A DNA stretch of 64,000 bases, from positions 33,913 through 97,912 of the forward strand of contig JBBRCK010000002.1 of assembly GCA_038205015.1 (NCBI GenBank), given 5' to 3'. This DNA comes from Candidatus Levyibacteriota bacterium. Its GTDB lineage: Bacteria; Patescibacteriota; Microgenomatia; Levybacterales; UBA12049. Below, piece by piece: positions 1-33,366 of the stretch; position 1 is the stretch's first letter, and each line of letters begins with the position of its first letter. The notes beneath the pieces were generated by a model, which was not told the origin of the DNA, searched no databases, and saw nothing but the letters and a program-made list of their open reading frames with translations. A program made the translations under genes and the position numbers.

Positions 1-1163
1 ACATACCCTGCAAGCATAGATGTACAAAAGGATACTAAAATAAGAAGTCTTGTAGAGAATTGCGCAAGATCTAGAGTTGGAATTATTGACCAGATAGGCC
101 GTGAGATTGGAGTTAATAAGAATAATAAGATAGAAAATAAGGATAACCAAAATATAATAAAAGTTTTATATTTTAATTTAACTTTATTGGTTAATATTGC
201 AATTATAGAAAGAGTAACTACAGCCAATTGAGTGTATCCAATAACATAAGATAACTCGCCGTTTGGTCCTTGAAATAGAAATCCAAATCTCCATGGGGAA
301 TAAAATAATTGCCAAAAAGGTACAAATATAATCGCAGAAGTGATGCTTTTATGATAATTTGTAAACTGTAATAACAATATGTCTGCAATCCAAGCATGCA
401 TAGAAAGAATTATGCCTATTGTTGCAGTTAACAGTAGGTATTTAATAATTTGTATTTTGTTTTGATTTTTCCAGATTTTAAAATAAATATATGGAAGAAT
501 AATCAATCCAGCAAAAACAGTTGAAGGAGAGTGAGCGAGATATGATAAATATAGTATTACTCCGGTCCAGATAGACAGGAGTAAACTTTGTTTATCAATA
601 ATTTTTTTAAAACAATATAGTAAAAGAGGAATAAAAAGAAAACCGGCGATTTCTCCGCCTGTTGCACGAAAATGTAAATTAACTAAATGATAAGGAGAAA
701 ATAAATAAAATGTTGCTGCGACGAAAGCAGCTTTTTTATCTTTGAATTCTTCGAATGCAAATTTAAACATTACTATTCCAGAAAGAATAAAACATGATCC
801 TAAAAATATTTTCATGCTGTCAATAAAAGAAAATCCAATAATATGTAAAAATGAAACAAAGTAATATAGAAGTACATAGCTAAAAATAAATAACGGATAT
901 CCATAACTACTATTTAAATCTCCGCCCCATGATGGAATCAATTGTCCATCTTTTAAATTATTGTAAAAAGACATTGCATTTCTAATATGAATGTTAAAAT
1001 CACCACTTTCATAATCTCCTGGTCTAAAAATGCTTACAATAGGTAAAATAGATATTAAAATAAGTAGGACAAAAAAATTAATCTTTTTCTTTGGGAAAAT
1101 ATATTTATAAATTATAGTTCCAGTCAAAAGTAAACCAGATAAAACTAAATTTATAAAAGCCAT
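1..1163 (-). CDS. Partial polytopic membrane protein, YfhO/GT-C-like putative glycosyltransferase. The N-terminus is at 1163 and the C-terminus runs off the window start.
   Basis: Not in the ORF track. Manual reverse-strand translation from ATG 1163..1161 gives at least 387 codons with no stop (MAFINLVLSGLLLTGTIIYKYIFPKK...HIRNAMSFYNNLKDGQLIPSWGGDLNSSYGYPLFIF...). It is multi-TM, and its R..N...P.W...G.P loop motif resembles the YfhO-like protein at 20482-22863. Confidence 0.5.
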   Translation of the reverse strand, partial: MAFINLVLSGLLLTGTIIYKYIFPKKKINFFVLLILISILPIVSIFRPGDYESGDFNIHIRNAMSFYNNLKDGQLIPSWGGDLNSSYGYPLFIFSYVLLYYFVSFLHIIGFSFIDSMKIFLGSCFILSGIVMFKFAFEEFKDKKAAFVAATFYLFSPYHLVNLHFRATGGEIAGFLFIPLLLYCFKKIIDKQSLLLSIWTGVILYLSYLAHSPSTVFAGLIILPYIYFKIWKNQNKIQIIKYLLLTATIGIILSMHAWIADILLLQFTNYHKSITSAIIFVPFWQLFYSPWRFGFLFQGPNGELSYVIGYTQLAVVTLSIIAILTNKVKLKYKTFIIFWLSLFSILLFLLTPISRPIWSIIPTLDLAQFSTRLLILVSFCTSMLAGY

Positions 1164-1216
1164 TCTATGGAGATCAAACATGATGATATAATAGCTTTGT
1201 AAATTTATAATATCAA

Positions 1217-1663
1217 GTGAAATTATTGTTTATGAAAAAAGTATTCTTGAGTTTATTTTTTCTATGGATTATTTTAAGTATTTTAACTTTGCCTTATAAT
1301 GCTTTAAATACGGTTTTAGATATTAAATCATGGTTTTTTTTAACAGATAACCAAAAAAGAGAAAAGATCTTCGGGGATACATATGATTATATTTATTTTA
1401 TAAATTCAAAAACACCAAAAAATTCAAATATCTATATATTTTCAAAAGATGGTAAAATTGGTTTAATTGCAAGATATTTCCTTTATCCCCGCAAGCTCTA
1501 TGTGACTAAAGATGATAGTAATTTAATTAATCTTTTAAAGCATGAATCCTTTGATTATATTTCTCTTTATGATAAAGAGAAAATAATACAAAATTATAAA
1601 TTATTTGCTAAATATCAATCAAAAACTACATTTCATTTTGGAATAATTTATAAGAAAATATGA
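1217..1663 (+). CDS. Hypothetical membrane-anchored protein with an N-terminal TM helix and a soluble domain.
   Basis: 148-aa ORF with a hydrophobic N-terminus. Its stop overlaps the next gene's start (ATGA at 1660). Confidence 0.35.
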   Translation: MKLLFMKKVFLSLFFLWIILSILTLPYNALNTVLDIKSWFFLTDNQKREKIFGDTYDYIYFINSKTPKNSNIYIFSKDGKIGLIARYFLYPRKLYVTKDDSNLINLLKHESFDYISLYDKEKIIQNYKLFAKYQSKTTFHFGIIYKKI

Positions 1664-3024
1664 TTGACATAATTTTAACTTCGTTAGCAATATCTTTTGT
1701 TGCATTATTAGGATTTTCAATAATCAAATATTTTAGCTTATGGTCGGAAGCGGATAATCTTTCAATTGCTGCAGTTTCTTATGGTTTAGGTGTTGGGCTC
1801 ATTTCTATGCAGTTGTATATTTATTCCAGAATCGGCTTGCAGTGGAGTAGAGAATTAATAATGTTTCCCTGGTTTATGCTTATGCTATTTGTTTTTATAA
1901 ATAATATACATAGCCTATCTAAATTCAAAATCCCTAAGTTTAATATTACTTCAGGAATTAATCTTATCCTTTTGTTTTTTATTATTGCAGCAGCGAGTTA
2001 TACTTTTTTTGAAGCTTTAATTCGTCCGGTTAGCGTTTGGGATGCTGTAGCGATTTGGATGAACAAATCAAAAATCTTTTATTTTGACCAAAGCATAACG
2101 ACTAATCTGCTATATTTATTTGATTTTGGTTATCCGTTGGTAGTTAGTTTATTTGGAACTTTTATATATATAATTCTGGGTCACATAAATGATTCCGCAG
2201 TGCTTTTGACTTCGTTTGCTTTTTACTTTTTTACGGCTCTTTTATTATTTTCCACTATTAAGAAAAGATTTGGTTTAACATATGCATTAATTTTTACTTT
2301 TCTTTTTGTTACAACTCAAAATTTTGTTAGGCATGGTGGGAGAATGGAGGCAGGTCAAGCTGATCTACCGCTTGGGTATTATACTTTTGTTTGCCTAATA
2401 TTGCTCTTAGATTATTTTAAACAAAATAAAGCTAAATTACTGTCACTTCTCTCAATATATTTGGGAATTACTGGACTTATAAAATCTGAAGCTCTATTTA
2501 TTACTATTGCGATTGTAATTCCAATTATATATCAAATTTATAAAACTAAGCATTATAACCATTTAATTATTCTCTTCTTTTGGGTTTTACCAATAATTGA
2601 TTGGCAGCTATACAAAAACGATATAGCTAAGCCGCCTAATTTTTACCCGTTTTATCAAAACATCCTATCCTGGCAAAGAGTGGTTAATACTTTATTAGGA
2701 ATGGTAAAAGAGTTTATAAATATAAAAAGCTGGAATATGCTTTGGATAGTGTATTTTTATTCTTTCTTAATAGTAAAAATAAAGAATAAAAAGGAATTAA
2801 TAATTATAAATACAATTATACTTTCACAAATCTTTATATATTTTTTAATTTATATTTTAAATTCTGCCTTTAATCCAGAAAGTTCTGCCGAAAGATTATA
2901 TGTTCATATTGCACCATTAGTTTTCTTCTATCTTGCAATAGTTTTCTGGAAATTAATAGACTTAAAAGATTTAAGAAAAAGCATTATGTTACTCTTTTCT
3001 AAAGTTAGTTCATTATTTAATTAA
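1660..3024 (+). CDS. Polytopic membrane protein, putative GT-C/YfhO-like glycosyltransferase.
   Basis: 454 aa with many TM helices. Loop motif RPVSVWDAVAIW...DFGYPL resembles the other GT-C-like paralogs in this window. Confidence 0.4.
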   Translation: MIDIILTSLAISFVALLGFSIIKYFSLWSEADNLSIAAVSYGLGVGLISMQLYIYSRIGLQWSRELIMFPWFMLMLFVFINNIHSLSKFKIPKFNITSGINLILLFFIIAAASYTFFEALIRPVSVWDAVAIWMNKSKIFYFDQSITTNLLYLFDFGYPLVVSLFGTFIYIILGHINDSAVLLTSFAFYFFTALLLFSTIKKRFGLTYALIFTFLFVTTQNFVRHGGRMEAGQADLPLGYYTFVCLILLLDYFKQNKAKLLSLLSIYLGITGLIKSEALFITIAIVIPIIYQIYKTKHYNHLIILFFWVLPIIDWQLYKNDIAKPPNFYPFYQNILSWQRVVNTLLGMVKEFINIKSWNMLWIVYFYSFLIVKIKNKKELIIINTIILSQIFIYFLIYILNSAFNPESSAERLYVHIAPLVFFYLAIVFWKLIDLKDLRKSIMLLFSKVSSLFN

Positions 3025-3050
3025 AGAATGTTATAATTCCAACCACTATT

Positions 3051-5642
3051 ATGGTTAAGGTAAGAGCAACATTAATTTGCACAATATTTAACGAAGAAAA
3101 AAACATTGAAAGCTTCATAAAATCTATTGCAAAGCAAACAGTTATTCCAAACGAAATTATTATTGTGGATGGCGGAAGTAAAGATAATACAGATGTTGTA
3201 CTTAAGAGATTAATAGAAAAATATGCCAACAAACTTAAGATAATATTTTTACAAAAGATGGGAAATAGGTCTATTGGCAGAAATGAGGCAATCAAAAATT
3301 CTTCTAACGAAATAATTCTTTGTACCGATTCGGGAAATTTATTGGATAAAAACTGGGTAAAAGAAATTACCAGACCCTTTTCTAATAAAAGGGTAGAAGT
3401 TGTAGCAGGATACTATAAAGGGATTGGAAAGACAGCGTTTGAAAAATGCATGATTCCTTATGCTCTCGTAATGAAAGAAAGGATAAATAAGAATAATTTT
3501 TTACCTGCAACAAGGTCTATGGCATTTAAAAAAAATATTTGGAAAAAGGTAGGTGAATTCAATGAAAAATTTTCTCACAATGAAGATTATGATTTTGCAA
3601 ACAAACTTAAAAGTAGGAATGCAAAAATTGTATTTACAGACAAAGCGATTGTAAGTTGGTTTCCTAGAAGAAATTTAAAGCAGGCATTTGTTATGTTTTT
3701 TAGGTTTGCTTTTGGTGACGGAGAATCAGGGAATTTGCGAGAAAAGGTGTTATATATATTCTTAAGATATTTTTTGTTATTTTATTTGCTTTTTCTTGAT
3801 TATTTATACAAATCTAAAATTTTATCGATAATTATTAGTTTAGGAGTTGTAGCTTATCTGTCTTGGTCTATTGCAAAAAATACTAAGTATATAAATGACT
3901 CAAAAAAATATTTTTTACTTCCTCTAATTCAATTGACATCTGATATTGCAGTAATGGTTGGTACGAGTTTGGGGGTTATAAAGCGTGTTATTAATTTAGA
4001 TTTTAAAGCTGTGTTTTTACATAATAAGGGGTTATTTTTTATCTTAATTGTTTATATATTAACAGTTTTGTCTTCAATTACGTGGGGTATTCCAAATCAG
4101 AATCACCCATTTTTATACCATATGGATGAATGGCATCAGCTTCAATCTGTAAGGTTTGTTTTTCAATATGGAAGTCCAAATTTTCAAGCATCTGCGAACG
4201 GACCTATGTTTCATTTCTTTCTCTCAGGAATTTATCTTTCCCCCTTTGTTTTACTAAAAATTGTAAATCCTTTCACAATAAAATCTGCTATAGATGCGAT
4301 AAACATGCAACATTTAATATTTATTATTCTTCGTTTGAATACCTTATTGTTTGGTGTACTAACTTTACTTACTATTTATAAGACTTCAAAGATTTTAAAA
4401 ATTAAATCAATGCTTCCAATTGTATTACTTGCATTTACTCCGGTTTGGATAATGTTAAGCAATAATTTTAAGTATGATATTGCACTTACGTTTTGGCTGA
4501 CATTTTCAATATATTGTTTTTTAAGATACTTTAAAAACCCTATAATTCATAATTTAGTTTTACTTTGTATCGTATCTGCATTGACTCTATCAGTTAAGGT
4601 TACGGGAATTCCACTTATTGGATTAATTATTGTAAGTTTCTTTTTATTTTCCAATAATCCTTTTAATAGGATAAAAGATTTAGTTATTGGATTAATTTCC
4701 TATTTTTTGATTGTAATTTTCTTTGGAATTCCGGATATTATATTTAATGGAAAAAGTATTTATGAATATTTATATTCAAATTTAACTTTAACAGCTAATT
4801 TGTCAAATTATGTTAAAACTGGATACTCCACTTTTTCTTTTATAATGTTACATAATTTTCCTACAATTTTTGGCCATCCATTATTTTTATTGTTTTGCTT
4901 ATCGCTTATCTACTTCTTAAAATTAATACGTGAAAGCGTAATTAATAAAGAAAAGATTTATAAATTTTATTTAATTATATTGTTGTACTTTATTATTTTT
5001 ATTTTTAGTTTTTATCCGATTATTAATTTGGGACCATCAGCAAACAGAGTTTTAGTTATATTACCCGCAATGGTGTTAATAATAGCTATCTCAGTAAGCG
5101 AATTTATTAAAAACTTGAGTGGTAACAAGAAAATATTAGTGATTTTTATACTATTTATTTGTATTTTTTTACAAATTTTTGAAACTTATTGTTGGGTTTT
5201 ATTAAAACATACTCCTGCTCCTCAAGAAACATCTTCTTCCTGGGTTTTAAAAAATATAAAACCATATACTACAATAGGTTTAGAAAATATACCTTTATAT
5301 CAAAAAGAACCTGACATTGTTCTAAAAGAATTTTATAATAAGCAGTATAAAACGAATTTGAAATTAAAATATAATTATCAAATTGTAGATTACAATACCA
5401 AAAATCTTCCGGAAGTAATAATTGTATCGGACGTGAAATTATCAGAGGAGTCTGAGAGAAATACCTCGAAAATTAATCTTATAAATAAATTAAATAAGGA
5501 AAATTATAAAATTATTACTACCTTTTCGCCAGCTTTAAATTTTTATTATTTTTTTGGTAATACATTTAATTTTGTTTCATCTGGTCTTATAGCATATCCG
5601 GGAGATATTACAATTTTTAAGAAAAATAACATGCAGAATTAA
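3051..5642 (+). CDS. Fusion protein: N-terminal GT2 glycosyltransferase (polyprenyl-phosphate sugar synthase-like) joined to a C-terminal PMT/ArnT-like GT-C membrane glycosyltransferase.
   Basis: 863 aa. N-terminus LICTIFNEEKNIESFI...IIIVDGGSKDNT...CTDSGN is GT2-like. About 14 TM segments follow, carrying a DE loop motif (YHMDEWH), with a C-terminal soluble domain. Confidence 0.6.
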   Translation: MVKVRATLICTIFNEEKNIESFIKSIAKQTVIPNEIIIVDGGSKDNTDVVLKRLIEKYANKLKIIFLQKMGNRSIGRNEAIKNSSNEIILCTDSGNLLDKNWVKEITRPFSNKRVEVVAGYYKGIGKTAFEKCMIPYALVMKERINKNNFLPATRSMAFKKNIWKKVGEFNEKFSHNEDYDFANKLKSRNAKIVFTDKAIVSWFPRRNLKQAFVMFFRFAFGDGESGNLREKVLYIFLRYFLLFYLLFLDYLYKSKILSIIISLGVVAYLSWSIAKNTKYINDSKKYFLLPLIQLTSDIAVMVGTSLGVIKRVINLDFKAVFLHNKGLFFILIVYILTVLSSITWGIPNQNHPFLYHMDEWHQLQSVRFVFQYGSPNFQASANGPMFHFFLSGIYLSPFVLLKIVNPFTIKSAIDAINMQHLIFIILRLNTLLFGVLTLLTIYKTSKILKIKSMLPIVLLAFTPVWIMLSNNFKYDIALTFWLTFSIYCFLRYFKNPIIHNLVLLCIVSALTLSVKVTGIPLIGLIIVSFFLFSNNPFNRIKDLVIGLISYFLIVIFFGIPDIIFNGKSIYEYLYSNLTLTANLSNYVKTGYSTFSFIMLHNFPTIFGHPLFLLFCLSLIYFLKLIRESVINKEKIYKFYLIILLYFIIFIFSFYPIINLGPSANRVLVILPAMVLIIAISVSEFIKNLSGNKKILVIFILFICIFLQIFETYCWVLLKHTPAPQETSSSWVLKNIKPYTTIGLENIPLYQKEPDIVLKEFYNKQYKTNLKLKYNYQIVDYNTKNLPEVIIVSDVKLSEESERNTSKINLINKLNKENYKIITTFSPALNFYYFFGNTFNFVSSGLIAYPGDITIFKKNNMQN

Positions 5643-5699
5643 AGAATGAGAACTAATATAGATTATGATGTTATTCTTTGTTAAAATACTATATGTTTT

Positions 5700-6230
5700 A
5701 TGAAATTTACTAAAACTTTTATTTCTGGATTAATTGTTATTGAATTTGATAAATTTGACGACGAAAGAGGATATCTTGCTAAATTTTTTGACAAAGAAAC
5801 CTACAAAAAAAATAATATTAAATTAGATTTAACACAGGTAAAATATTCTTCTACTAAGAAAAAAGGTACTATTCGTGGGCCACATATGCAATTCAAGCCT
5901 GATGAGGAAGCAAAAATAGTTCATTGTTTGAAGGGAAGAATTTTCGATGTGGTTTTGGATTTGAGGCCAAAATCAAAAACATACGGAAAATGGTTTGGAG
6001 AAGCTATGTCAGATAAAAATAAAAAAAGTTTATACATACCAAAAGGACTTGCCCATGGTTACCAAACTTTAACTAATGACTGTGATGTTTTGTATATGAT
6101 GTCCGGGCATTTTTCTAAAACAAATTATGTTGGTGTTAGATGGGATGATCCACATTTTAATATTACTTGGCCTTTAAAACCTACTTTGATTGCAGAAAAA
6201 GACCTTAAGCGGCCATTGTTTAATAAATAG
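5700..6230 (+). CDS. rmlC: dTDP-4-dehydrorhamnose 3,5-epimerase.
   Basis: 176 aa cupin. Motifs GIRGPHMQF, LKGRIFDVVLDLR and KSLYIPKGLAHGYQTL are typical of RmlC. Confidence 0.85.
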   Translation: MKFTKTFISGLIVIEFDKFDDERGYLAKFFDKETYKKNNIKLDLTQVKYSSTKKKGTIRGPHMQFKPDEEAKIVHCLKGRIFDVVLDLRPKSKTYGKWFGEAMSDKNKKSLYIPKGLAHGYQTLTNDCDVLYMMSGHFSKTNYVGVRWDDPHFNITWPLKPTLIAEKDLKRPLFNK

Positions 6231-6232
6231 TT

Positions 6233-7099
6233 ATGATTGATTTACTAATTATTGGGAAGGACGGGCAGCTTGGTAAAGCGTTTGTGAAAGCCTCGAGAGA
6301 ACAAAAACTTAGCTTCAAGGCATATTCAAAAGACGAACTTGATATCACAAAAAATTTACACGTAGAAAAAATACTAAAGAAAATTAAGCCAAAAATTATT
6401 ATTAATACCTCTGCATTTCACGTTACCGCGCTTTGTGAAAAGAAACCCCTTGATGCATTTAAAGTTAATTGCATAGCAGTTTCAAATTTGGCAAAATTGG
6501 CTAAAGCAGTTAATGCGAGATTTGTTACCTATAGCACAAATTATGTATTTGATGGTAAAAAAGGTCAACCATACTTTGAAAACGATATTGTAAACCCACT
6601 GCAAATGTATGGATTAAGTAAGCTTGCAGGAGAAATGTCAGCTTTAAATGAATATCCTAGTGGAACTTACATCATAAGAACTTGCGGAGTTTACGGAGGA
6701 GGGTATTCGGGTAGCAAAAGTAAAAAAGGGAATTACGTTCTAAAAATTTTAAATGAAGCAAGGACTAACGAAGTAATACGCGCAAGTACTAAGCAAATTG
6801 TAAATCCAACATATGCCGGAGATTTAGCGAAATACTCAATAAGTTTATTGAAATTAAATCCAAAGCCAGGTATATATCACCTTGCTAGCGAAGGTTTTTG
6901 CAGTTGGTACGACTTTGCAAAGAAAATACTGGAATATAAAAAAATTAATGTAAAACTAATTCCGTTTGAAAGTAATGAAGAAAATATAAATTTTCAAAGT
7001 CCACTTTTTTCAGCTCTTCAAAATAGTAAAGCTAAGAAGCTTGGAATTGTTTTACCAAGTATAGAAGATGGATTATTTAAGTATCTGGTAGAAATTTAA
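6233..7099 (+). CDS. rmlD: dTDP-4-dehydrorhamnose reductase.
   Basis: 288 aa SDR. Motifs IINTSAFHVTALCEKKPLDAFKVN, YSTNYVFDG and YGLSKLAGE are typical of RmlD. Confidence 0.85.
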   Translation: MIDLLIIGKDGQLGKAFVKASREQKLSFKAYSKDELDITKNLHVEKILKKIKPKIIINTSAFHVTALCEKKPLDAFKVNCIAVSNLAKLAKAVNARFVTYSTNYVFDGKKGQPYFENDIVNPLQMYGLSKLAGEMSALNEYPSGTYIIRTCGVYGGGYSGSKSKKGNYVLKILNEARTNEVIRASTKQIVNPTYAGDLAKYSISLLKLNPKPGIYHLASEGFCSWYDFAKKILEYKKINVKLIPFESNEENINFQSPLFSALQNSKAKKLGIVLPSIEDGLFKYLVEI

Positions 7100-7101
7100 G
7101 T

Positions 7102-7338
7102 ATGAAGAAAATAATTTTTTATACGACTATTTTGTATTTAATCTTTTTGATTATTTTTAGATTTTCTTTTAGATATTTTAGAACTTTTTTTCTTCCTCCG
7201 GAAATTTCAGGATTTAAAATAGTCGGTTATTCTCAGTACTTTGGGTATCCATTCTATTATGATACTGTAGTATTTTTTCTTTTAGTTTTAGTTCCAAGTT
7301 TAATATTTTTAATCTTTATGCTGCACCATAAGAAATGA
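7102..7338 (+). CDS. Small 2-TM membrane protein, hypothetical.
   Basis: 78 aa with two hydrophobic helices. Translationally coupled to the flanking genes. Confidence 0.3.
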   Translation: MKKIIFYTTILYLIFLIIFRFSFRYFRTFFLPPEISGFKIVGYSQYFGYPFYYDTVVFFLLVLVPSLIFLIFMLHHKK

Positions 7339-9275
7339 AGAAGCTATATTTATATATTAAGAAGAATATTTTTGAAGTAATATTTATTGTAATTATTGAT
7401 ACACTAATTTCTATAATTAATTATTTCTTCTTGCACATAAGCGATTTAAAACTTTCAAATTTTGACTTACAGACATTTTTGACTTGGTATTATGCTGCTT
7501 CTAGAAACTTAATCCCATATAAAGATTTATATTATCCTTATGGTTTACTTTCGTATTATAGACAAGAAAATATATATTTTTCCTTAATTTACATATTTAT
7601 TTCGGTTTTAGCTTTTAATGTTACATTTTATATATTTAAAATAGTTTTTAAACAAAATTTTCTTTCATATGCTGTATCAATTATTTTTTTAGTATTTATT
7701 CTGCTAATCCCCGGTTTAGAGACATTTAATAGATATGGAGTTTCATTTGCTTTAACACTAATCATATCTTACGTATTTTTTGTTACAAAAACATCTAAAA
7801 AAATACTATTCGCTTTGGGATTTATTATTTCTACTATTTTTTGGATGCTTCATGATCAAGGAATTTATGCATACATTATTTTTGCTGTATTCTTTTTTAG
7901 TAAAGAAATTAATAAGTTTATGCTTTATAAGAATAAACTTAGATTTTTCGGTGAGTTCTTTAAAAATACTTTTTCTTTTTTATTTGGATGCTTCATTGGT
8001 TTATTTATTTTTCTTATATATCTTATAAAACATAATGCAGTTAGTGAATTTTGGTATTACTTAACAGTAAGCCTTCCTGAGTTTCCAGTTTTGTCTAAGA
8101 CACCTTTTTTTAACTTTCTCTTTACGTTTAACAACCTGTTTTCAATTGCCGTACTATGCCTTTCGATATTTTTTGTTATTTATAAATTACTTAAAAAACG
8201 AAAGAAGTCTTTATTTATGTATATCGAAATTGGATTAATTATTCTAATTTTGTTATTTGAACAAAAAAATGTTATCCGTTCGATTTCAATCTCATTTACA
8301 TTTGTATCTTTTGCGTTGTTATTTATCGTTTTATTTGACTTTATTATTTTGAATAAAAAAAATATTAGAGGTTTAAAACCATTAAAGCTCACTTATTTAT
8401 TGATTCTATTATTTATTACTATCGTATTTTACTTTTCAAATTATAATTTTAATACTTTTTTTACAAATAAAAATAATTCTTCAACTTATAATAGTCATAT
8501 TGCAGTAATTAATAAATTAAGAACATATAGTCAATTTAATAATAAGATTTTTAGCTTTCCCGGTGATCCAATTTTTTACACATTGCTTAAACAAATCCCA
8601 CCTTACTTTACTAGTATTTACGAAGCATCATCTGAACAGTCACAGCAAAGGATAATTGATTATATGAAAAACAATAATATTTGGTACGTAGTGATTAATA
8701 TAGGTAATAAATCAATTCAAGATACCGTGCCTAACTATATACGTGGGGTTTATGAATTAAAGTATATTCTTAATAATTATTCAGTAAAGGATACTGTTAG
8801 TAATTTTTTAATATTAGAAAGAAATTCTAATAAAGATTTTTTTACTAAAAGCAATGATTACAAAGTACAAGAATATATAAATTATCTTTTAAATGTTAAT
8901 TTGGAATCAATTCCATATTCTGAAGGCATATATAAATCTAGGTCTTTAATAAATAATATAATTATAATTAACGCTTCAAACAGTAGGTTATTAAATGAAT
9001 TTCTAAATAAAAATGTTGTAAATTCAAAAAACATAGTTTTAGTAGTAAAAAATAATATTAACTCTGCAAAATCGATTCAAATTAGTGTAAAATCAGAAAA
9101 CGACTTAAGCACAAACGTAAATTTTAAATCATGTGATCTAAAATTTTGTTATATTAATTTATCAAATCTGCCATTGTTTTATAAAAATAGAAGAATTAAG
9201 TCGATAAATTATAACGATAATTCTTTAGTTGGGCTTATAAAAGTTAACGATAATAGTATAAAAGAATTATGGTAA
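7335..9275 (+). CDS. Polytopic membrane protein (YfhO/GT-C-like N-terminal half) with an Asn-rich C-terminal extracytoplasmic domain.
   Basis: 646 aa. About 370 aa of TM helices carry the motif SRNLIPYKDLYYPYGLL. The C-terminal roughly 270 aa are hydrophilic and N-rich. The gene sits immediately upstream of a GtrB/CsbB-like GT2. Confidence 0.4.
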   Translation: MKKLYLYIKKNIFEVIFIVIIDTLISIINYFFLHISDLKLSNFDLQTFLTWYYAASRNLIPYKDLYYPYGLLSYYRQENIYFSLIYIFISVLAFNVTFYIFKIVFKQNFLSYAVSIIFLVFILLIPGLETFNRYGVSFALTLIISYVFFVTKTSKKILFALGFIISTIFWMLHDQGIYAYIIFAVFFFSKEINKFMLYKNKLRFFGEFFKNTFSFLFGCFIGLFIFLIYLIKHNAVSEFWYYLTVSLPEFPVLSKTPFFNFLFTFNNLFSIAVLCLSIFFVIYKLLKKRKKSLFMYIEIGLIILILLFEQKNVIRSISISFTFVSFALLFIVLFDFIILNKKNIRGLKPLKLTYLLILLFITIVFYFSNYNFNTFFTNKNNSSTYNSHIAVINKLRTYSQFNNKIFSFPGDPIFYTLLKQIPPYFTSIYEASSEQSQQRIIDYMKNNNIWYVVINIGNKSIQDTVPNYIRGVYELKYILNNYSVKDTVSNFLILERNSNKDFFTKSNDYKVQEYINYLLNVNLESIPYSEGIYKSRSLINNIIIINASNSRLLNEFLNKNVVNSKNIVLVVKNNINSAKSIQISVKSENDLSTNVNFKSCDLKFCYINLSNLPLFYKNRRIKSINYNDNSLVGLIKVNDNSIKELW

Positions 9276-9279
9276 TTTT

Positions 9280-10038
9280 ATGAAAAATGCAAATATAAAT
9301 GTAATTATTCCCTCATATAACGAATCAAAAAATGTTCCAGCAGTAATTCGTGGTATTAGAAATGAGTTTCCGGAAGTAAGGATAATTTTTGTTGATGATT
9401 CAAATAAAGCAGAAAATAAAAAACTTAAAGATGTTATTTCAAAATTTGAAAATACAGATTTAATAACAAGAGGAAAGAAGCTTGGTAGGGGAAGTGCGGT
9501 AATGGATGGTTTTAAATTCGGATTAAAATATAAAAAGGCACAATATTTTTATGAAATGGACTCCGATTTAGCACATGAACCGACACATTTAAAAAGATTT
9601 TTGCAAAAAATTAAAGAGACTAATGCTGGCCTTGTTATAGGGTCACGCTATATGACAGGTGGAAGAGTTGTAGGTGTATCAATTTCCAGAAGAATTTTAA
9701 GCAGAATAATAAATAGATTTTTACGTATAATGTTAGGCTTTAAGCTAACTGACTACACAAGTGGTTATAGGCTTTATGGTAGAAGTGCTGTTGAGTTTCT
9801 TGTAAAATCTAAATTGAAATCAACCGGTTTCATTGCGCTTTCTGAAATATCCTATAAGCTTCATAAAAATAAATTTATGATCAAAGAAGTACCGGTAACC
9901 ATTTCTACTAGAAAATTTGGAAGGTCAACTATGGGTATAAAAGAATTGCTGAATTCACTAATATTTGTAATAAAAATGAAATTTGAGGAAGAAATACTAA
10001 ATATGTTTTATGCAAAACATTCTCATTACAAAAAATAG
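9280..10038 (+). CDS. GT2 polyprenyl-phosphate sugar synthase (DPM1/GtrB/CsbB-like), soluble form.
   Basis: 252 aa. Motifs IIPSYNESKN, FVDDSN, DSDLAHEP and GSRY..GG are GT2/DPM-like, and there is no C-terminal TM. About 50% identical to the paralog at 16852-17601. Confidence 0.75.
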   Translation: MKNANINVIIPSYNESKNVPAVIRGIRNEFPEVRIIFVDDSNKAENKKLKDVISKFENTDLITRGKKLGRGSAVMDGFKFGLKYKKAQYFYEMDSDLAHEPTHLKRFLQKIKETNAGLVIGSRYMTGGRVVGVSISRRILSRIINRFLRIMLGFKLTDYTSGYRLYGRSAVEFLVKSKLKSTGFIALSEISYKLHKNKFMIKEVPVTISTRKFGRSTMGIKELLNSLIFVIKMKFEEEILNMFYAKHSHYKK

Positions 10039-10055
10039 AAAGCTTATTTACTTGA

Positions 10056-10064
10056 TGTTATAAT
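10056..10064 (+). promoter_or_regulatory. Extended -10 promoter element (TGTTATAAT) upstream of the flippase gene.
   Basis: TGnTATAAT consensus lies 22 nt upstream of ATG 10086. Confidence 0.35.
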
Positions 10065-10085
10065 ATTCCAATTCAATTTTCGCCT

Positions 10086-11330
10086 ATGGGCTACTCAAAA
10101 AATTTTATAATTGGCATTTCATGGGTATCAATTCTTCGCATATCTGTAAAGCTGCTATCCTTAATAAAGATTATCGTTTTAGCAAGAATTTTATCTCAAT
10201 CTCAATTTGGAGCATTTTCTATCGCATTTATAGTTTATGGATTTTCGACAATTATCACCGAAACGGGCGTAAATACAGTATTAGTTCAGAATAATGAATC
10301 ATTAAGTAAATATATCAATACCGCATGGGTAATTACAATTACAAGGGGATTTGTAGTATTTATTTGTACACTTTTGTCTGCACCCTTAATTTCTCATTTT
10401 TTTAACATCCGTGAAGTTTATAGTTTGATAATTCTAATCAGTCTTGTGCCATTAATACAAGGGTTTATCAATCCAGCTGAAATATTATTTCAAAAAAACA
10501 TGTTATTCAAGAAAGAATTATCTTTTAGAATTATTATTAATATTCTGGAGGTAATTTTTACAATTATGTTTGTATATATTACAAAGAACGCAACAGGATT
10601 GGCATATGGATTAATCCTTGGTGCATTAATTGAAGTTTTTTTATCAATGTTCTATCTTAGTCCAAAGCCAAAATTTATCTTTAATAAAAAACATGCACGA
10701 ATGATAATACATAAAGGTAAATGGATTACATATGCTGGAATATTTAGTTATTTATATCAAAATATAGACAATCTAATTGTAGGTAAGTTCCTTGGAGCTT
10801 CGTCGTTGGGATTATACGACTTAATTTATAAAGTATCTATGATTCCGTTAAATGAAATAACAGATGTATTTGGAAGGGTAAGTTTTCCAATTTATATTAA
10901 AATTTCAAATGATGCAAGTAGACTTAAAAAAGCATTTTTAAAGTCCACAGTATTAATAATAATTATTATTTTTCCCGTATCTTTGGTTTGTTTTTTCTTT
11001 CCAAAAGAAGTACTCACTTTATTATTAGGAGAAAAATGGCAGGCTGGAAGTCAAATATTTCAAATTTTTGCTGGTTTTGGGATAATTAGAGCATTATCTA
11101 ATTCAACATCAGCATTTTTTATGGGTTTGGGAAAACAAAAATACGCAGCGATATTATCATTTATAAGTTTATTTACACTTTTAGTGATAATATTTATTGC
11201 AATTAACAATTATGGATTAGTAGGAGTGGCAGTATCTGTAATTACCTCGTCATTCATTGTTTTATTGTTATCATTATTTTTTGTTAGCAAAACACTATCC
11301 GGATTAAAGCTAAATAATGAAAAAATATAA
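10086..11330 (+). CDS. Polysaccharide/oligosaccharide flippase of the MOP (Wzx-like) family.
   Basis: 414 aa with about 12 TM helices. Typical polysaccharide-biosynthesis-protein architecture. Confidence 0.6.
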   Translation: MGYSKNFIIGISWVSILRISVKLLSLIKIIVLARILSQSQFGAFSIAFIVYGFSTIITETGVNTVLVQNNESLSKYINTAWVITITRGFVVFICTLLSAPLISHFFNIREVYSLIILISLVPLIQGFINPAEILFQKNMLFKKELSFRIIINILEVIFTIMFVYITKNATGLAYGLILGALIEVFLSMFYLSPKPKFIFNKKHARMIIHKGKWITYAGIFSYLYQNIDNLIVGKFLGASSLGLYDLIYKVSMIPLNEITDVFGRVSFPIYIKISNDASRLKKAFLKSTVLIIIIIFPVSLVCFFFPKEVLTLLLGEKWQAGSQIFQIFAGFGIIRALSNSTSAFFMGLGKQKYAAILSFISLFTLLVIIFIAINNYGLVGVAVSVITSSFIVLLLSLFFVSKTLSGLKLNNEKI

Positions 11331-12513
11331 TATAGGATTAATTTATGGAAATTTAAATAATGGTGGAGGAGCATATCAAATGCTTTCTTTAGCTAAAGAA
11401 TTGTCAAAGAAAAATAATGTTTTTGTTTTTGTTTATTCAGATTTGACAGAGGGAGCATACGAAAAACTAATAAATGATATTAAGTTTATTGTTATAAATA
11501 AAGAAAAAGTTAAACCTCAGTTTTGGATTTATAATTTATTAGAACCATTAATTATCTCAATTAAATTAAGCAGAGAGATTGGTAGTTATAATTTAGACGT
11601 TTTAAATCCTCATGAGTGGCCAGCTAGTTGGGCAGCTGTTATTGTGAAGATATTTAAAAAAATTCCAGTTGTTTGGATGTGTAATGACGTCTGGCATATG
11701 CCAGAACAGGATATTTATGAAAATAGAAGAAGAATGTTATTTATAAAAAAATATTTTTTCAGATTTATTGACTTATTGTTATTTTCATTTATCGATGAAA
11801 CAGTCGTTTTAGATAGTAGAATTAAAAAGATTATTAGTAAGTACTATAATAAAACTCCAATTGTAGTTAGAAGTGGTATTGATATAGATAGGTATAAAAA
11901 TAAATATATAATTAATATTGAAAAAAAACGCCTACATATTGACACAAATAAGATAGTATTTCTTTGTCAGTCAATTTTTTTTCCGCACCGCCGTTTTGAA
12001 GATGTAATTTTAGCAATTAAAATAATTCAATTCAAATATGGCAATTTAATTTTGTATATTATTGGATCAAGTAAGTATGACACCAGCTATTGCAGAAAAA
12101 TACAGGGGCTTATTGATGACAATAATCTACAAGGGTCAGTGATTATAGTTGATAAATTTCTTGATGATAATCACATGTTAAATTTTTTAAAAGCGTGTGA
12201 TGTATTCGTTTATCCAAATTTTAATCAAACTTGGGGACTCATCGCAATTGAGGCAATGGCATTAGGTAAACCATGTATTATTTCAAACAAATCAGGTGTT
12301 CATGAAGTCATTAAAGATTTTAATAATGGCCTTATATTTAAAAGTAAAAACGTTAACGATTTAGCAAATAAGATGGAAACATTAATCAAGAATAAAAACC
12401 TTAGAACATTAATAGGAAATAATGCTAGAGATTATGTATTTTCAAATTTATCTTGGGAAAATTATTCAAATTCAATGTTAAGAATATTTCATAAAGTTGT
12501 TTTAAACTTATAG
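11317..12513 (+). CDS. Glycosyltransferase family 4 (GT-B fold).
   Basis: 398 aa. C-terminal EAMALGKPCIISNKSGVHEVI...NGLIF is the Glycos_transf_1 signature. Confidence 0.7.
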   Translation: MKKYNIGLIYGNLNNGGGAYQMLSLAKELSKKNNVFVFVYSDLTEGAYEKLINDIKFIVINKEKVKPQFWIYNLLEPLIISIKLSREIGSYNLDVLNPHEWPASWAAVIVKIFKKIPVVWMCNDVWHMPEQDIYENRRRMLFIKKYFFRFIDLLLFSFIDETVVLDSRIKKIISKYYNKTPIVVRSGIDIDRYKNKYIINIEKKRLHIDTNKIVFLCQSIFFPHRRFEDVILAIKIIQFKYGNLILYIIGSSKYDTSYCRKIQGLIDDNNLQGSVIIVDKFLDDNHMLNFLKACDVFVYPNFNQTWGLIAIEAMALGKPCIISNKSGVHEVIKDFNNGLIFKSKNVNDLANKMETLIKNKNLRTLIGNNARDYVFSNLSWENYSNSMLRIFHKVVLNL

Positions 12514-12542
12514 TTCCACTATATTTTCGTCTATTCTAGTAG

Positions 12543-12548
12543 TATAAT
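12543..12548 (+). promoter_or_regulatory. -10 box TATAAT, 10 nt upstream of the epimerase start codon.
   Basis: Sequence agTATAATcgttaagtttATG. Confidence 0.3.
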
Positions 12549-12558
12549 CGTTAAGTTT

Positions 12559-13581
12559 ATGAGAAGAATTTTAATAACTGGTGGAGCAGGTTTTATTGGA
12601 ACAAATGCGACTGCATATTTTTTAAAAAAAAATAATCAAGTAACTATATTTGATAATTTCTCAAGAGAGGGTAGTAAAAAAAATATTATTTTTCTGCGTA
12701 AGAATTTTAAGAAAAATTTTAAAATTGTAAAAGGTGATGTTAGAATATTTAATAAAAAACTAATTAATTTAATAAACGCATCAGATGTGGTAATTCATCT
12801 TGCTGGTCAAGTTGCAGTTACGACGTCTGTAATAGATCCAATAACGGATTTTGATATTAATGTTAGGGGAACAATAAATATTCTTGAAGCGATAAGATTA
12901 GTAAAAAAGAAACCCATATTAATCTATAGTTCAACAAATAAAGTATATGGTGATTTGTCTAATTATGAAATTGTTGAATCTGAAGAAAGATATAGATTTA
13001 AAAATTTACCTAATGGTGTTTCTGAGCAAACAAATTTAGACTTTTATTCACCTTATGGATGTAGCAAAGGTTCAGCAGATCAGTATGTACATGACTATGC
13101 AAGGATTTATAGATTAAATACAATTGTTTTTAGACAATCGTGTATTTATGGGCCTCATCAGTTTGGAATTGAAGACCAAGGTTGGCTTGCTTGGTTTATG
13201 ATTGCAGTTGTAAAAAAATTACCTATTACAATTTATGGTAATGGTAAGCAAGTAAGAGATGCATTATTTGTAGACGATTTAATACGTGCTTATGATTTAG
13301 CAATCAAAAATATTAAAAAAACCAAGGGACAAGTTTATAATATAGGAGGCGGAAGTAAGAATACAATTTCTGTTTGGAAAGAATTTTGTCCTAAATTAAA
13401 TGAGTTGTTTAATACAAATGTAAAATTTAAGTACAGCAAGCAAAGACCGGGTGATCAGCCAATATATATTTCTGATATTAGAAAAGCCTATAAAGATTTT
13501 TACTGGAAGCCTCAAGTCACTTTGAACGATGGGTTAAAGCAACTTGCACAATGGATTAGTAATAATAAGGAAAGCTTCTAG
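12559..13581 (+). CDS. NAD-dependent sugar epimerase, CDP-paratose 2-epimerase (tyvelose epimerase)-like.
   Basis: 340 aa SDR. Motifs GGAGFIG, HLAGQVAVTTSVIDP, YSSTNKVYGDL, YSPYGCSKGSADQYV, DQGW and GNGKQVRD match the CDP-tyvelose-2-epimerase subfamily as recalled from memory. Confidence 0.6.
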   Translation: MRRILITGGAGFIGTNATAYFLKKNNQVTIFDNFSREGSKKNIIFLRKNFKKNFKIVKGDVRIFNKKLINLINASDVVIHLAGQVAVTTSVIDPITDFDINVRGTINILEAIRLVKKKPILIYSSTNKVYGDLSNYEIVESEERYRFKNLPNGVSEQTNLDFYSPYGCSKGSADQYVHDYARIYRLNTIVFRQSCIYGPHQFGIEDQGWLAWFMIAVVKKLPITIYGNGKQVRDALFVDDLIRAYDLAIKNIKKTKGQVYNIGGGSKNTISVWKEFCPKLNELFNTNVKFKYSKQRPGDQPIYISDIRKAYKDFYWKPQVTLNDGLKQLAQWISNNKESF

Positions 13582-14685
13582 ATGAAAATTGCTTTTTTTC
13601 ATGAATTACATGCAGGGGGAGCAAGAAGAGCCTCAAATGAATTTGCAAAACAGCTTAGAAAAAACCATACAGTAGATTTATACATCACTGATGAAGGTCT
13701 TAATTCTAAAGAAAAAAATTTTTATGATAGAATTTTCTTCTTCAAATTTCTGCCTATAAAATGGAATGGTAATGATTGGAGGGGTAAGCTTTATAAAGAT
13801 ACTTATGAGCTGTATAAACTTTACAAATTACATAAAAATATAGCTAAAGTTATAGATAAAAAAAAATACGACATTGTTTTTGTTCAGCCATCAAAATTAA
13901 CTCAGGCACCTTTTATTCTCAGGTTTTTAAAAAGTAAAAATATGTATTATTGTCAGGAAAGCTTAAGAATAGTATACGATAAATCATTCAGAATTAATAA
14001 ACAACTGCCAAAATATAAATACATTTATGAAAGTGTAAATAGATTTATAAGAAAAATAATTGATAAAAAAAATATAAAATCGGCAAATCAAGTATTGGTG
14101 AATTCAAATTTTACAAAAAGAAATATATTTAGTGCATATAACATTTCCTCAAAAGTTTGTTATATGGGAGTAGATACAAATATATTTAAGCCCTCTAAAA
14201 TTAAAAAAACGAATGACATTTTATATATTGGAGCATATGCCTATTCAGACGGATATACTGACTTGAAAAAAATATTATCAAAAAATACTCAAAAATATAA
14301 AGTATTAATTTTAGCCCAAGAAAGAAAATGGATAGATAACGATTTATTGCTTAGAAGTCTCTACAGTCAATCAAAAATTGCATTAGCATTGTCTCATAAT
14401 GAACCTTTCGGTTTAATACCACTTGAGGCTATGGCTTGTGGTGTGCCTATAATAGCAATTAATGAGGGAGGATATAAAGAGTCAGTAGTAAATGGTAAAA
14501 CAGGTTTCTTGGTTTCAAGAAATACAGTCCTTTTACAAAAAAAAATTAATTATCTGCTTAAGAATAAAAAAATTTTAGAAAAATTTAGTTATGAATCAAG
14601 GAGTCATATTTTACAAAATTGGACGTGGGAAAAGAATACTAGAATACTTGAGAAAATTATTATAAAAAGAGTGTTAGAAGATTAG
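13582..14685 (+). CDS. Glycosyltransferase family 4 (GT-B fold).
   Basis: 367 aa. EPFGLIPLEAMACGVPIIAINEGGYKESVVNGKTGFLV is the Glycos_transf_1 signature. Confidence 0.65.
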   Translation: MKIAFFHELHAGGARRASNEFAKQLRKNHTVDLYITDEGLNSKEKNFYDRIFFFKFLPIKWNGNDWRGKLYKDTYELYKLYKLHKNIAKVIDKKKYDIVFVQPSKLTQAPFILRFLKSKNMYYCQESLRIVYDKSFRINKQLPKYKYIYESVNRFIRKIIDKKNIKSANQVLVNSNFTKRNIFSAYNISSKVCYMGVDTNIFKPSKIKKTNDILYIGAYAYSDGYTDLKKILSKNTQKYKVLILAQERKWIDNDLLLRSLYSQSKIALALSHNEPFGLIPLEAMACGVPIIAINEGGYKESVVNGKTGFLVSRNTVLLQKKINYLLKNKKILEKFSYESRSHILQNWTWEKNTRILEKIIIKRVLED

Positions 14686-14702
14686 TCAGTTATATTTTTA
14701 AT

Positions 14703-16874: not shown

Positions 16875-17601
16875 GCATAATATTTTAGGCAATGACTTTG
16901 TTGTAGTTTTTCCCTCATTTATTGAAGTTGAGAATGTCTCTATTTTGGTAAAAAGAATTAGAGCAGCTTTGCCAAAATCGAAAATAATTATCGTTGATGA
17001 TTCACCAAGGAAAGAAAATGAAGTAATCAAACGCAGCGTTAAACAATTTACAAATATACAGTTTATTTCAAGACTAAAAAAGCTAGGAAGAGGGAGCGCA
17101 ATAATTGAAGGTCTTAAGCTTGGTTTGAAAGATAAGACAAATAAATATTTCTTCGAAATGGATTCGGATCTTGCTCAGAATCCCAAGGAATTTATTAGGT
17201 TTATAAAAAAAATGAATGAAGAAAACGTAGACTTGGTAGTTGGATCACGTTATATTCGAGGCGGTAGAACAATTGGCGTTACTAAATCTAGGATAATATT
17301 AAGTAGGATTATAAATAAATTTCTATATCTATTATTGGGAGTTAAGCTTACAGACTATACTGATGGTTTTAGATTATACAACCGAAGATCAGTAGAACTC
17401 ATAGCCAAAGAGGATATAAAATCTACGGGATTTATTACTTTAACTGAGACAGTTTATAAATTAAACAGGAAAGGTATTAAAATGGCTGAGGTGCCGGTTA
17501 CAATTTATAGCAGAAGATACGGTATCTCTACTCGTGATTTTAATGAATTATTCCAATCTTTGCTATTTGTTCTTAAAATGAGGTTTGAATATTCTAGCTA
17601 G
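16852..17601 (+). CDS. GT2 polyprenyl-phosphate sugar synthase (DPM1/GtrB/CsbB-like), paralog of 9280-10038.
   Basis: 249 aa. Motifs IVDDSP, KKLGRGSAIIEGL, EMDSDLAQNP and GSRYIRGG. Its start overlaps the 3' end of the upstream fusion gene by 23 nt. Confidence 0.75.
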   Translation: MINMKQNKHNILGNDFVVVFPSFIEVENVSILVKRIRAALPKSKIIIVDDSPRKENEVIKRSVKQFTNIQFISRLKKLGRGSAIIEGLKLGLKDKTNKYFFEMDSDLAQNPKEFIRFIKKMNEENVDLVVGSRYIRGGRTIGVTKSRIILSRIINKFLYLLLGVKLTDYTDGFRLYNRRSVELIAKEDIKSTGFITLTETVYKLNRKGIKMAEVPVTIYSRRYGISTRDFNELFQSLLFVLKMRFEYSS

Positions 17602-17602
17602 G

Positions 17603-18847: not shown

Positions 18848-18931
18848 ACGTTCTGGCAGGTAGGTTATTATAAATTATACACAAGGTTATTATCAATAGC
18901 AGGGTTTATTTGTTTATAAAATATTTTAAAG

Positions 18932-18937
18932 TATAAT
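18932..18937 (+). promoter_or_regulatory. -10 box TATAAT, 7 nt upstream of start codon 18945 (leaderless-type).
   Basis: Sequence aagTATAATattacccATG. Confidence 0.3.
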
Positions 18938-18944
18938 ATTACCC

Positions 18945-22863: not shown

Positions 22864-22912
22864 GAACGTAGTATAGCAAATATGATTATTAGAGAAAAAT
22901 ACAATTTTAAGT

Positions 22913-22918
22913 TATAAT
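22913..22918 (+). promoter_or_regulatory. -10 box TATAAT, 6 nt upstream of ATG 22925 (leaderless-type).
   Basis: Sequence gtTATAATttggttATGctt. Confidence 0.3.
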
Positions 22919-23689: not shown

Positions 23690-23765
23690 TATATTTTATT
23701 TTTCTGCTCTGGTCGTTTTTTGTTCTCTACAACTATTTTTCTTATATTTTATGTAAAGGAGGATT

Positions 23766-27218: not shown

Positions 27219-27222
27219 AATG

Positions 27223-27295
27223 AGCCGAAGGTGAGATTTGAACTCACGACTTACTCTTTACGAAAGAGTTACTCTACCAGCTGAGTTACTTCGGC
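27223..27295 (-). tRNA. tRNA-Thr (anticodon CGT).
   Basis: Manual cloverleaf on the reverse strand. Acceptor GCCGAAG/CTTCGGC, D-arm ACTC-AGCTGGTA-GAGT, anticodon stem ACTCT/AGAGT with loop TTCGTAA, T-arm GTGAG-TTCAAAT-CTCAC, discriminator T. CCA is not encoded. Confidence 0.8.
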
Positions 27296-27333
27296 ATTAG
27301 TATATTCTATGAAATTTTATCTATCAAGGCAAA

Positions 27334-27749: not shown

Positions 27750-27750
<1 letters not shown>
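27334..27750 (-). CDS. atpC: F0F1 ATP synthase subunit epsilon.
   Basis: 138 aa. N-terminal beta-sandwich (PTTTGEISILPNH), C-terminal helix and operon position identify it. Confidence 0.85.
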
Positions 27751-30003
<2,253 letters not shown>

Positions 30004-30005
30004 AT

Positions 30006-31529: not shown

Positions 31530-31531
31530 AA

Positions 31532-31882: not shown

Positions 31883-31884
31883 AA

Positions 31885-32388: not shown

Positions 32389-32391
32389 ATC

Positions 32392-33335: not shown

Positions 33336-33366
33336 TGTTATATTTTATTTATAAATTGAGTTCAAG

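Follow-up and report, generated by a model that had tools for sequence, protein, structure and literature searches.

The window analysed here is a 64,000-nucleotide stretch of a Candidatus Levyibacteriota bacterium (GenBank assembly GCA_038205015.1, contig JBBRCK010000002.1), whose first 26.5 kb form one low-GC surface-glycan cluster. Within this cluster lies an uninterrupted open reading frame (ORF) of 863 codons, here called FUS1, that encodes a two-module membrane protein. It combines an N-terminal glycosyltransferase of family 2 (GT2) with a polytopic glycosyltransferase of the GT-C type. The original prediction, made from the sequence of the window, described FUS1 as an unusual fusion of an enzyme that makes a polyprenyl-phosphate-linked sugar to the enzyme that consumes it on the other face of the membrane. 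The single-chain fusion of a GT2 to a GT-C is borne out by our analysis, and the role of the GT2 module as donor maker for its own GT-C partner is not, as the cluster contains dedicated synthases for this purpose. Most likely, FUS1 couples two reactions of a single pathway, one on each side of the membrane, rather than joining a donor synthase to its own consumer.

A conserved single-chain fusion

The FUS1 ORF exists as predicted, and its length is far above chance since the surrounding DNA has a G+C content of only ~27%. Both halves of the 863-aa product are recognized by Pfam: the GT2 models PF00535 (aa 8-127, E = 6.9e-19) and PF13641 (aa 7-213, E = 2.3e-12) match the N-terminal part, and the PMT_2 model PF13231 matches aa 427-555 of the membrane part with 35.4 bits (cut-off 26.1). 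At least 120 full-length homologues of 836-883 aa (42-54% identity, 99-100% query coverage) were found in a search of 5.8 billion proteins. They originate from NCBI, JGI, ENA and Logan assemblies and all carry GT2 and PMT_2 domain calls; those with a name are designated ‘glycosyltransferase’ and assigned to Patescibacteria or Levybacteria. A locus survey, in which one genome per GTDB species was scanned, yielded 78 loci (numbered with the prefix L below), 49 of which encode a full-length fused FUS1. The survey of other members of the candidate phyla radiation (CPR) that had been proposed along with the prediction thus shows the fusion to be widespread in CPR/Patescibacteria, and the named fused loci belong mostly to Candidatus Levybacteria/Levyibacteriota. 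Many third-party annotation records of metagenome-assembled genomes with a FUS1-type cluster (L002, L005, L006, L010 and others) are titled ‘uncultured Gammaproteobacteria’ or ‘Pseudomonadales’, labels that are probably wrong.

The two modules are also encoded separately in part of the lineage. The GT-C part (aa ~315-860) occurs as a stand-alone ORF of 475-560 aa in ~22 loci, and in 10 of these a stand-alone N-terminal module of 287-324 aa, corresponding to aa 1-312 with 40-56% identity, is located 1-9 kb away in the same cluster. Such split genomes are what could speak for an assembly or sequencing artefact, in which a frameshift joined two neighbouring genes of FUS1. The chance of this is negligible: in the 49 GTDB genomes and in at least 120 proteins that stem from independently made assemblies, the fused frame is kept end to end, the junction is modelled by AlphaFold2 (AF2) with a pLDDT above 90, and a single frameshift could not have made FUS1 because the separate genes are non-adjacent in the split genomes. 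On the grounds of this conservation and non-adjacency, the merged-gene reading was rejected. The junction itself had been placed near nucleotide 3740; the actual module boundary lies at aa ~313-320 (nucleotides ~3990-4010). FUS1 is therefore a genuine single-polypeptide fusion that is conserved across many ultrasmall bacteria of the Levybacteria type.

Fused and stand-alone forms are interspersed in a tree of the GT-C module. This rough neighbour-joining tree, built without bootstrap and too rough for counting events, suggests repeated fusion or fission of the GT2 and GT-C modules. In two Paceibacterota-like loci (L072 9095..11593 and L076 9131..11239) a FUS1-type GT-C is fused to another GT2, which is related to the GT2 of a second fusion in the window (FUS2, see below), and this indicates domain shuffling among GT2-GT-C fusions. 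The N-terminal module has a wider distribution of its own. An exhaustive HMMER search with aa 1-315 retrieved 506 representatives (at the 50% identity level) at E ≤ 1e-30; among the best 150 of these 506, most are stand-alone proteins of ~300-330 aa covering aa 1-313, and a minority are fusions of ~830-870 aa.

Anatomy and family placement of the two modules

An AF2 model was built with an alignment of 119 homologues, over which residue conservation was scored as well (Table 1). Its GT2 module contains ~2 transmembrane (TM) helices next to interface helices and its GT-C module ~11-13 TM helices, in agreement with the ‘about 14’ originally estimated. The first GT-C helix spans aa 326-341 and is followed by a loop helix that opens with the MDEWH motif, after which ~10 further membrane helices extend to aa 719. 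The C-terminal soluble domain that had been expected behind them is predicted with confidence as an alpha/beta domain.

Table 1. Features of FUS1 and of related genes in the window and in sister genomes (L numbers; coordinates of the latter refer to the respective locus).
Feature	Position	Strand	Basis or remark
FUS1, whole bifunctional glycosyltransferase	3051..5642	+	ORF, Pfam, homologues, AF2 (pLDDT 92.9, pTM 0.89)
Catalytic GT-A (GT2) domain, predicted cytoplasmic, aa 1-~205	3051..3665	+	
D93-S-G95, family ‘DxG’ in the DxD position	3327..3335	+	Aligns with TarS D-S-D
E178-D179, xED motif; D179 predicted catalytic base	3582..3587	+	Invariant; aligns with TarS A-E-D178 (E177-D178)
Amphipathic interface helix, aa 209-226, (M/Q)xxR(F/Y)AxGD, degenerate QxxRW-like	3675..3728	+	AF2 helix, family alignment
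GT2-module TM hairpin, formed by helices of aa 231-253 and aa 256-280	3741..3890	+	
Helix 3 of the GT2 module (aa 286-314), with Q294, D298 and G304 conserved	3906..3992	+	AF2; end of the module and of stand-alone homologues
GT-C module, aa ~320-720, polytopic	4008..5210	+	
M358-D359-E360-W361-H362, acidic motif in the predicted first extracytoplasmic GT-C loop	4122..4136	+	Invariant in 119 sequences
C-terminal alpha/beta domain, aa 724-858, conserved IGxENIPIYQxxPD motif	5220..5624	+	Confidently predicted
Likely polyprenyl-phosphate sugar synthase (PP-GT), 252 aa	9280..10038	+	PpgS 1.8e-19, AglJ 1e-18, ArnC 1e-14; DPMS 5mlz 1.6e-18 (aa 4-239)
Wzx-type flippase	10086..11330	+	Polysacc_synt_3 1.7e-65
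FUS2, second, unrelated GT2 + PMT_2 fusion, 723 aa	14703..16874	+	22% identity to FUS1, GT2 part only
Second PP-GT-type GT2, 249 aa	16852..17601	+	NCBIfam PpgS 2.4e-17, AglJ, ArnC
PMT	18945..20528		Separate gene in the window
PP-GT + PMT fusions of sister genomes, 752-764 aa	L005 12582..14840; L006 2627..4885; L045 12564..14822; L054 9947..12241		Directly downstream of the FUS1 orthologue

The orientation of the chain hinges on the helix of aa 286-314. It has the highest hydrophobic moment and the lowest mean hydrophobicity among the membrane helices, and the loops on either side of it are rich in lysine and arginine, while the MDEWH loop holds one basic residue. Hyaluronan and cellulose synthases have two TM helices in succession, with an interface helix before and another after them. 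By analogy with these synthases, and given its charge distribution and hydrophobic moment, the helix probably lies as an interface helix at the cytoplasmic face. This position would result in an even number of membrane passes, with the GT2 site inside and the acidic GT-C loop outside. Homology and the positive-inside rule likewise point to an extracytoplasmic MDEWH loop. The modelled layout thus fits the cytoplasmic GT2 site and extracytoplasmic GT-C site for which an AF2 check had been suggested, with the orientation of helix 286-314 as its conditional element.

The GT2 module displays the features of an inverting GT2 enzyme, namely a GT-A fold and matches to Pfam GT2 models that exceed the gathering score. 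Within this class it had been predicted to be DPM/GtrB-like, an assignment that does not hold. The best NCBIfam model is PgaC/IcaA (1.4e-16, aa 7-303), and matches were also obtained with EpsD and TIGR04283 (3e-14) and with MftF. The PP-GT models, in contrast, cover only aa ~7-120 and reach E-values of 0.084 (ArnC), 0.041 (AglJ) and 0.035 (Dol-P-hexose transferase). The same picture emerged when a profile of 78 family sequences was compared with the PDB. K4CP (5e-22), TarS (3e-17), TarP (8e-17), PcManGT (1.6e-14, aa 5-192) and WrtF (3e-14) scored well, with K4CP, TarS and PcManGT each aligned over aa ~5-190, and DPMS, GtrB and ArnC matched only from aa 3-111 to aa 4-148, which is the nucleotide-binding half. 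Foldseek returned the hyaluronan synthase of a Chlorella virus as top match, and the structural matches to hyaluronan synthase and PcManGT reach into the membrane part of the module. Hence, the closest solved structures are not those of PP-GTs.

An ORF of the same cluster (9280..10038) served as control. It is matched by the PP-GT models at 1e-14 to 2e-19 over aa 5-227, and its segments MDSDLAHEP and TDYTSGYR align with MDADLQHPP and KDPVSGFF of DPMS. The PP-GT signature, which we take to be DxDxxH(x)P together with Dxx(S/T)G(F/Y)(R/F), in line with the DPMS alignment, is absent from FUS1; TDSGNLLDKNW and LPATRSMAF...SHNEDYDF are found instead. Judged from sequence, the FUS1 module would fall outside the PP-GT clade (DPMS/GtrB/ArnC/PpgS) and is not expected to synthesize polyprenyl-phosphate-linked sugars.

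The catalytic residues of the GT2 module, the absence of which would have spoken against the original prediction, are conserved: D40, D93, E178 and D179 are invariant in the FUS1 family. The ‘DxD-type’ motif that had been read in CTDSGN is in fact D-x-G. Both D93 and G95 are invariant in 114 out of 114 representatives (98 stand-alone, 16 fused); D-x-G is a hallmark of the family and not a sign of decay. Variant DxD motifs are also known from active GT2 enzymes, such as GADD in WrtF (PMC12595478). D179 is the predicted general base; it aligns with TarS D178, the counterpart of TarP D181, SpsA D191 and PcManGT D223 (PMC12595478). As to how the nucleotide-sugar diphosphate or metal might be handled with a DxG motif, the loss could be compensated by the invariant FUS1 residues D223 and D298, of which D298 sits in the third membrane-associated helix.

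In the interface-helix motif of the family, position 215 is M or Q, position 218 is mostly R, position 219 carries F or Y, and D223 does not vary; FUS1 itself reads MFFRFAFGD, and Q-x-x-R-(F/Y) is found in part of the family only. Basic residues are conserved at the membrane interface (R155, K161, R218, R230, R239 and K276). With two TM helices and one further helix, versus at least six TM helices, the module lacks a processive-type channel.

Two solved enzymes help to delimit the family. PcManGT of Pyrobaculum calidifontis (PDB 6YV7), a ‘minimal cellulose-synthase-like’ GT2, shares ~15% sequence identity with FUS1. It is an archaeal, stand-alone enzyme with a canonical metal-dependent site, whereas FUS1 has the DxG motif, another helix arrangement and a fused GT-C. 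Ceramide glucosyltransferase, a member of GT21, has D-S-G and EDY(x)FA in common with FUS1 (hhalign probability 92%, with a comparison sequence entered by hand). A weak profile match to its structure (PDB 26qf) over aa 80-270, a range that extends into the membrane part, lends support. The relationship is nevertheless distant (E = 5e-4), and generic GT2 enzymes score much better. Sequence comparison places the GT2 module in a distinct, widespread family of ~315 aa that resembles PcManGT, hyaluronan synthase and ceramide glucosyltransferase.

The membrane module has a polytopic GT-C fold. The original prediction of a DE loop motif (HMDEWH) holds, as MDEWH (aa 358-362) directly follows the first TM helix of the module and places acidic residues in the first GT-C loop. 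No sequence-level match to any solved GT-C was obtained when the GT-C half was compared with the PDB, either as single sequence or as 119-sequence profile. At the level of the fold, ALG12, AglB and STT3 score similarly to PMT and ArnT, and for that reason the module is not assignable to one CAZy family (GT39, GT83 or GT66). Compared with PMT (GT39) and ArnT (GT83), FUS1 is without a MIR domain and has a C-terminal alpha/beta domain of its own type. The fold suggests that the module may use a polyprenyl-phosphate-linked donor.

Gene cluster, synteny and further fusions

The cluster comprises two unassigned polytopic proteins, FUS1, rmlC, rmlD, a PP-GT, a Wzx-type flippase, two GT4 enzymes and an epimerase/dehydratase, followed by FUS2, a second PP-GT, a C-methyltransferase, a PMT, a YfhO protein, another GT2, a weak PMT_2 protein and a Wzy_C protein. 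It thereby unites PP-GT, flippase and GT-C, as in the known three- and four-component systems. The control ORF described above is likely, from its sequence, the maker of polyprenyl-phosphate-linked sugar in the cluster.

Conservation of this context was determined for those 39 fused loci in which 5 kb or more of downstream sequence is available. All 39 carry a Wzx gene downstream of FUS1 (17 within 82 bp, 27 within 3 kb), and a PP-GT is present in 31, immediately downstream in 8. The core order over related loci is FUS1 - [PP-GT] - [C-methyltransferase] - Wzx - GT4 - FUS2 - GT2 - GT-C - Wzy_C. The prediction that no separate flippase would be needed is thus contradicted by the Wzx gene. A flippase of the GtrA family, which the prediction had specifically named, was not detected among the scanned cluster ORFs. 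A GtrA- or GacJ-like partner was also sought with Pfam in the small ORFs 7102..7338, 1217..1663 and L061 7552..7953, with none found.

Single-polypeptide GT2-GT-C proteins are not rare in the lineage, contrary to what had been assumed, and the window itself encodes the unrelated FUS2. This protein has at least 120 full-length homologues, one of which is named ‘GT2 family glycosyltransferase/4-amino-4-deoxy-L-arabinose transferase-like glycosyltransferase’ by JGI. Its GT2 is rhamnosyltransferase/GlfT1-like, a class that extends polyprenyl-PP-linked glycans. A third type is found in four sister genomes. They consist of an ArnC/PgfS/AglJ/PpgS-like GT2 and a GT-C orthologous to window ORF 18945..20528; the window encodes the two parts individually, at 16852..17601 and 18945..20528. 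These proteins share with FUS1 the single-polypeptide GT2 + GT-C architecture and the same cluster, and differ in that their GT2 is a bona fide PP-GT. On sequence grounds, it is these four fusions, and not FUS1, that fit the description of a donor synthase fused to its consumer.

Several neighbouring genes deserve mention in their own right. Three conserved proteins have no Pfam or NCBIfam match, all on the forward strand: 1217..1663 (148 aa, one TM helix), 1660..3024 (454 aa, polytopic) and 7335..9275 (646 aa, polytopic). Related loci also encode the 148/454-aa pair and the 646-aa protein. No relationship to FUS1 was detected by hhalign when its family profile was compared with the polytopic neighbours 1660..3024, 7335..9275 and L060 8306..9976. 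A 78-aa ORF (7102..7338, forward strand) between rmlD and the 646-aa gene, upstream of the PP-GT, matches no Pfam family; by analogy with GacJ or WpsB, its product could be a small membrane protein that partners the PP-GT.

Sugar-modifying genes are found at 5700..7099 (rmlC/rmlD), 12559..13581 (NDP-sugar epimerase/dehydratase) and 17603..18847 (sugar C-methyltransferase), which suggests that a deoxyhexose of the rhamnose type, possibly C-methylated, is made by the cluster. Other genomes do not keep rmlC/rmlD next to the fusion, and this adjacency was not used as a clue to the donor sugar. The G+C content is 25-28% in the glycan cluster (1..26500) and 31-37% in the remainder (26500..64000), with the switch at a tRNA gene (27223..27295, reverse strand) and the start of the ATP synthase operon. 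The low-GC cluster could be a variable or horizontally exchanged glycan island.

A proposed pathway with two glycosyl transfers on opposite membrane faces

We consider it somewhat better than an even bet that the GT2 module of FUS1 adds a sugar to a membrane-anchored acceptor inside the cell, that the product is flipped by Wzx and that the GT-C module acts outside with a lipid-linked donor. The inverting GT2 module (aa 1-~315) would transfer a sugar from a nucleotide sugar onto a hydroxyl of the acceptor at the cytoplasmic face. A hydroxyl is suggested because the xED base is retained and the acceptor half of the module is membrane-embedded. The acceptor would most likely be a sugar or glycan linked to polyprenyl phosphate, with the neighbouring PP-GT as priming enzyme, and the syntenic Wzx-type flippase would bring the intermediate to the outer face. 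There, the GT-C module (aa ~320-720 plus the C-terminal domain), which is PMT/ArnT/oligosaccharyltransferase-like, would use a lipid-linked donor to yield a glycosylated wall polymer, a glycolipid or a glycosylated protein. We infer the identities of acceptor and donor, and also the order of the steps.

The closest mechanistic precedent for this scheme, with separate proteins, is the lactococcal polysaccharide pellicle (PSP): WpsA/B makes GlcNAc-P-C55, cytoplasmic glycosyltransferases extend, a Wzx-type flippase flips and a GT-C transfers (PMC10821137). More generally, the parts list of GtrA/B/C, GacI/J/K/L and the lactococcal WpsA/B-WpsC-WpsG-WpsJ systems equals that of the cluster, with a PP-GT, a Wzx-type flippase, elongating glycosyltransferases and GT-Cs. 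In these three- and four-component systems every component is a separate protein, whereas FUS1 unites an elongating-type GT2 with a GT-C in one chain, and no GtrA-family flippase was detected in the cluster.

Mycobacterial Ppm1, originally put forward as the closest analogy, is a poor one. In Mt-Ppm1 (Rv2051c), D1 is the apolipoprotein N-acyltransferase Lnt and D2 the polyprenyl-phosphate mannose (PPM) synthase, and related species encode these two parts in individual, adjacent genes (PMC3460810). Ppm1 and FUS1 are alike as bi-domain proteins with a fused glycosylation enzyme; Ppm1, however, has an acyltransferase in place of a GT-C and, unlike FUS1, a true PP-GT as its GT2. No Lnt/CN-hydrolase domain was found in FUS1 with Pfam or NCBIfam.

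Several observations weigh against the favoured scheme. The split genes are not adjacent, and at least in the L054 lineage the GT-C is retained with no N-terminal module within 18 kb, so that coupling of the modules is not obligate. The cluster showed no initiating phosphoglycosyltransferase. At least five GT-Cs face only two PP-GTs there, and their pairing is not assignable. Finally, PcManGT, the nearest structure, is reportedly dependent on dolichyl phosphate (Dol-P) according to its abstract, which makes polyprenyl phosphate a possible acceptor of FUS1.

This last point is the main reason to keep the donor-synthase reading alive, in which the GT2 module makes a polyprenyl-phosphate sugar that is consumed by its own GT-C, possibly in a self-contained handover. 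The membrane-embedded GT2, with its interface helix, TM hairpin and conserved basic interface residues, would suit such a role. In addition, the fused and split pattern implies a functional linkage, and the PP-GT + PMT fusions of the sister genomes indicate that fusions of this kind are selected in the lineage. We nevertheless hold it unlikely that FUS1 works in this way, considering that PP-GT models and structures match the nucleotide-binding half only, that the PP-GT motifs of ORF 9280..10038 are missing, that the xED catalytic base is kept and that most loci supply a separate PP-GT and all of them a Wzx.

Alternatively, the GT2 module could be a GT21-like glycolipid synthase of the ceramide or diacylglycerol type, the product of which is flipped as an anchor and then serves as acceptor that the GT-C extends with polyprenyl-phosphate-linked sugar from the separate PP-GTs. 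This would be parallel to the glycolipid-anchor logic of phosphatidylinositol mannoside/lipomannan and lipoteichoic acid assembly. It would also account for the motifs shared with ceramide glucosyltransferase and for the GT21 signal of the family: PF13506 (Glyco_transf_21) is at threshold in FUS1 (21.0 versus 21.7 bits), reaches 33.7 bits in a stand-alone orthologue and is precomputed in most FUS1 homologues, and HpnI matches weakly. Yet PF13641 and generic GT2 structures score far above GT21, and the conserved neighbour is a Wzx-type flippase, typical for polyprenyl-linked substrates. We regard this reading as rather improbable.

A more far-reaching possibility is that FUS1 acts as a ‘make, flip and transfer’ machine, in which the half-tunnel of the GT2 module (TM hairpin and Q294/D298 helix) packs on the GT-C and the product crosses the membrane without a dedicated flippase. 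The pTM of 0.89, high for a protein of two modules, and the fact that GT2-GT-C fusions are found repeatedly and independently in bacteria with tiny genomes are compatible with such a machine; we would give it only a slim chance, and on present evidence FUS1 does not overturn the need for a flippase. Slimmer still is the prospect of a processive synthase of the HAS/PgaC/NodC type that threads its glycan outwards through a channel completed by the GT-C helices: the hyaluronan synthase (HAS) top match in Foldseek, the PgaC model and the D,D,D,QxxRW-like motif set speak for it, but a TM hairpin plus one helix contrasts with the at least six channel helices of HAS and BcsA, QxxRW is degenerate (MFFRF in FUS1), most family members are stand-alone proteins of ~315 aa with no partner channel, and the module is closest to the non-processive PcManGT.

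No paper describing the FUS1 architecture was retrieved in a literature search for GT2-GT-C fusions and for CPR combined with GT-C, and the hundreds of such proteins in public databases bear automatic names only. Though common in Levybacteria and related bacteria, the bifunctional architecture of FUS1 is uncharacterised. The genomes of Patescibacteria/CPR are minimal, the cells live attached to other cells, and their envelopes have hardly been studied. The locus in the window devotes ~25 kb to surface glycosylation and encodes two unrelated GT2-GT-C fusions, to which the sister genomes add the PP-GT-PMT type. The GT2 half defines a sizeable family of membrane GT2s, the invariant D-x-G of which raises the question of metal use. 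A confidently modelled single chain that reaches both membrane faces is an attractive target for cryo-EM and biochemistry of two-face coordination. Lastly, the fused and split forms act as a Rosetta stone that tells which cytoplasmic glycosyltransferase pairs with which extracytoplasmic GT-C, a relation that is otherwise very hard to assign in any bacterium.

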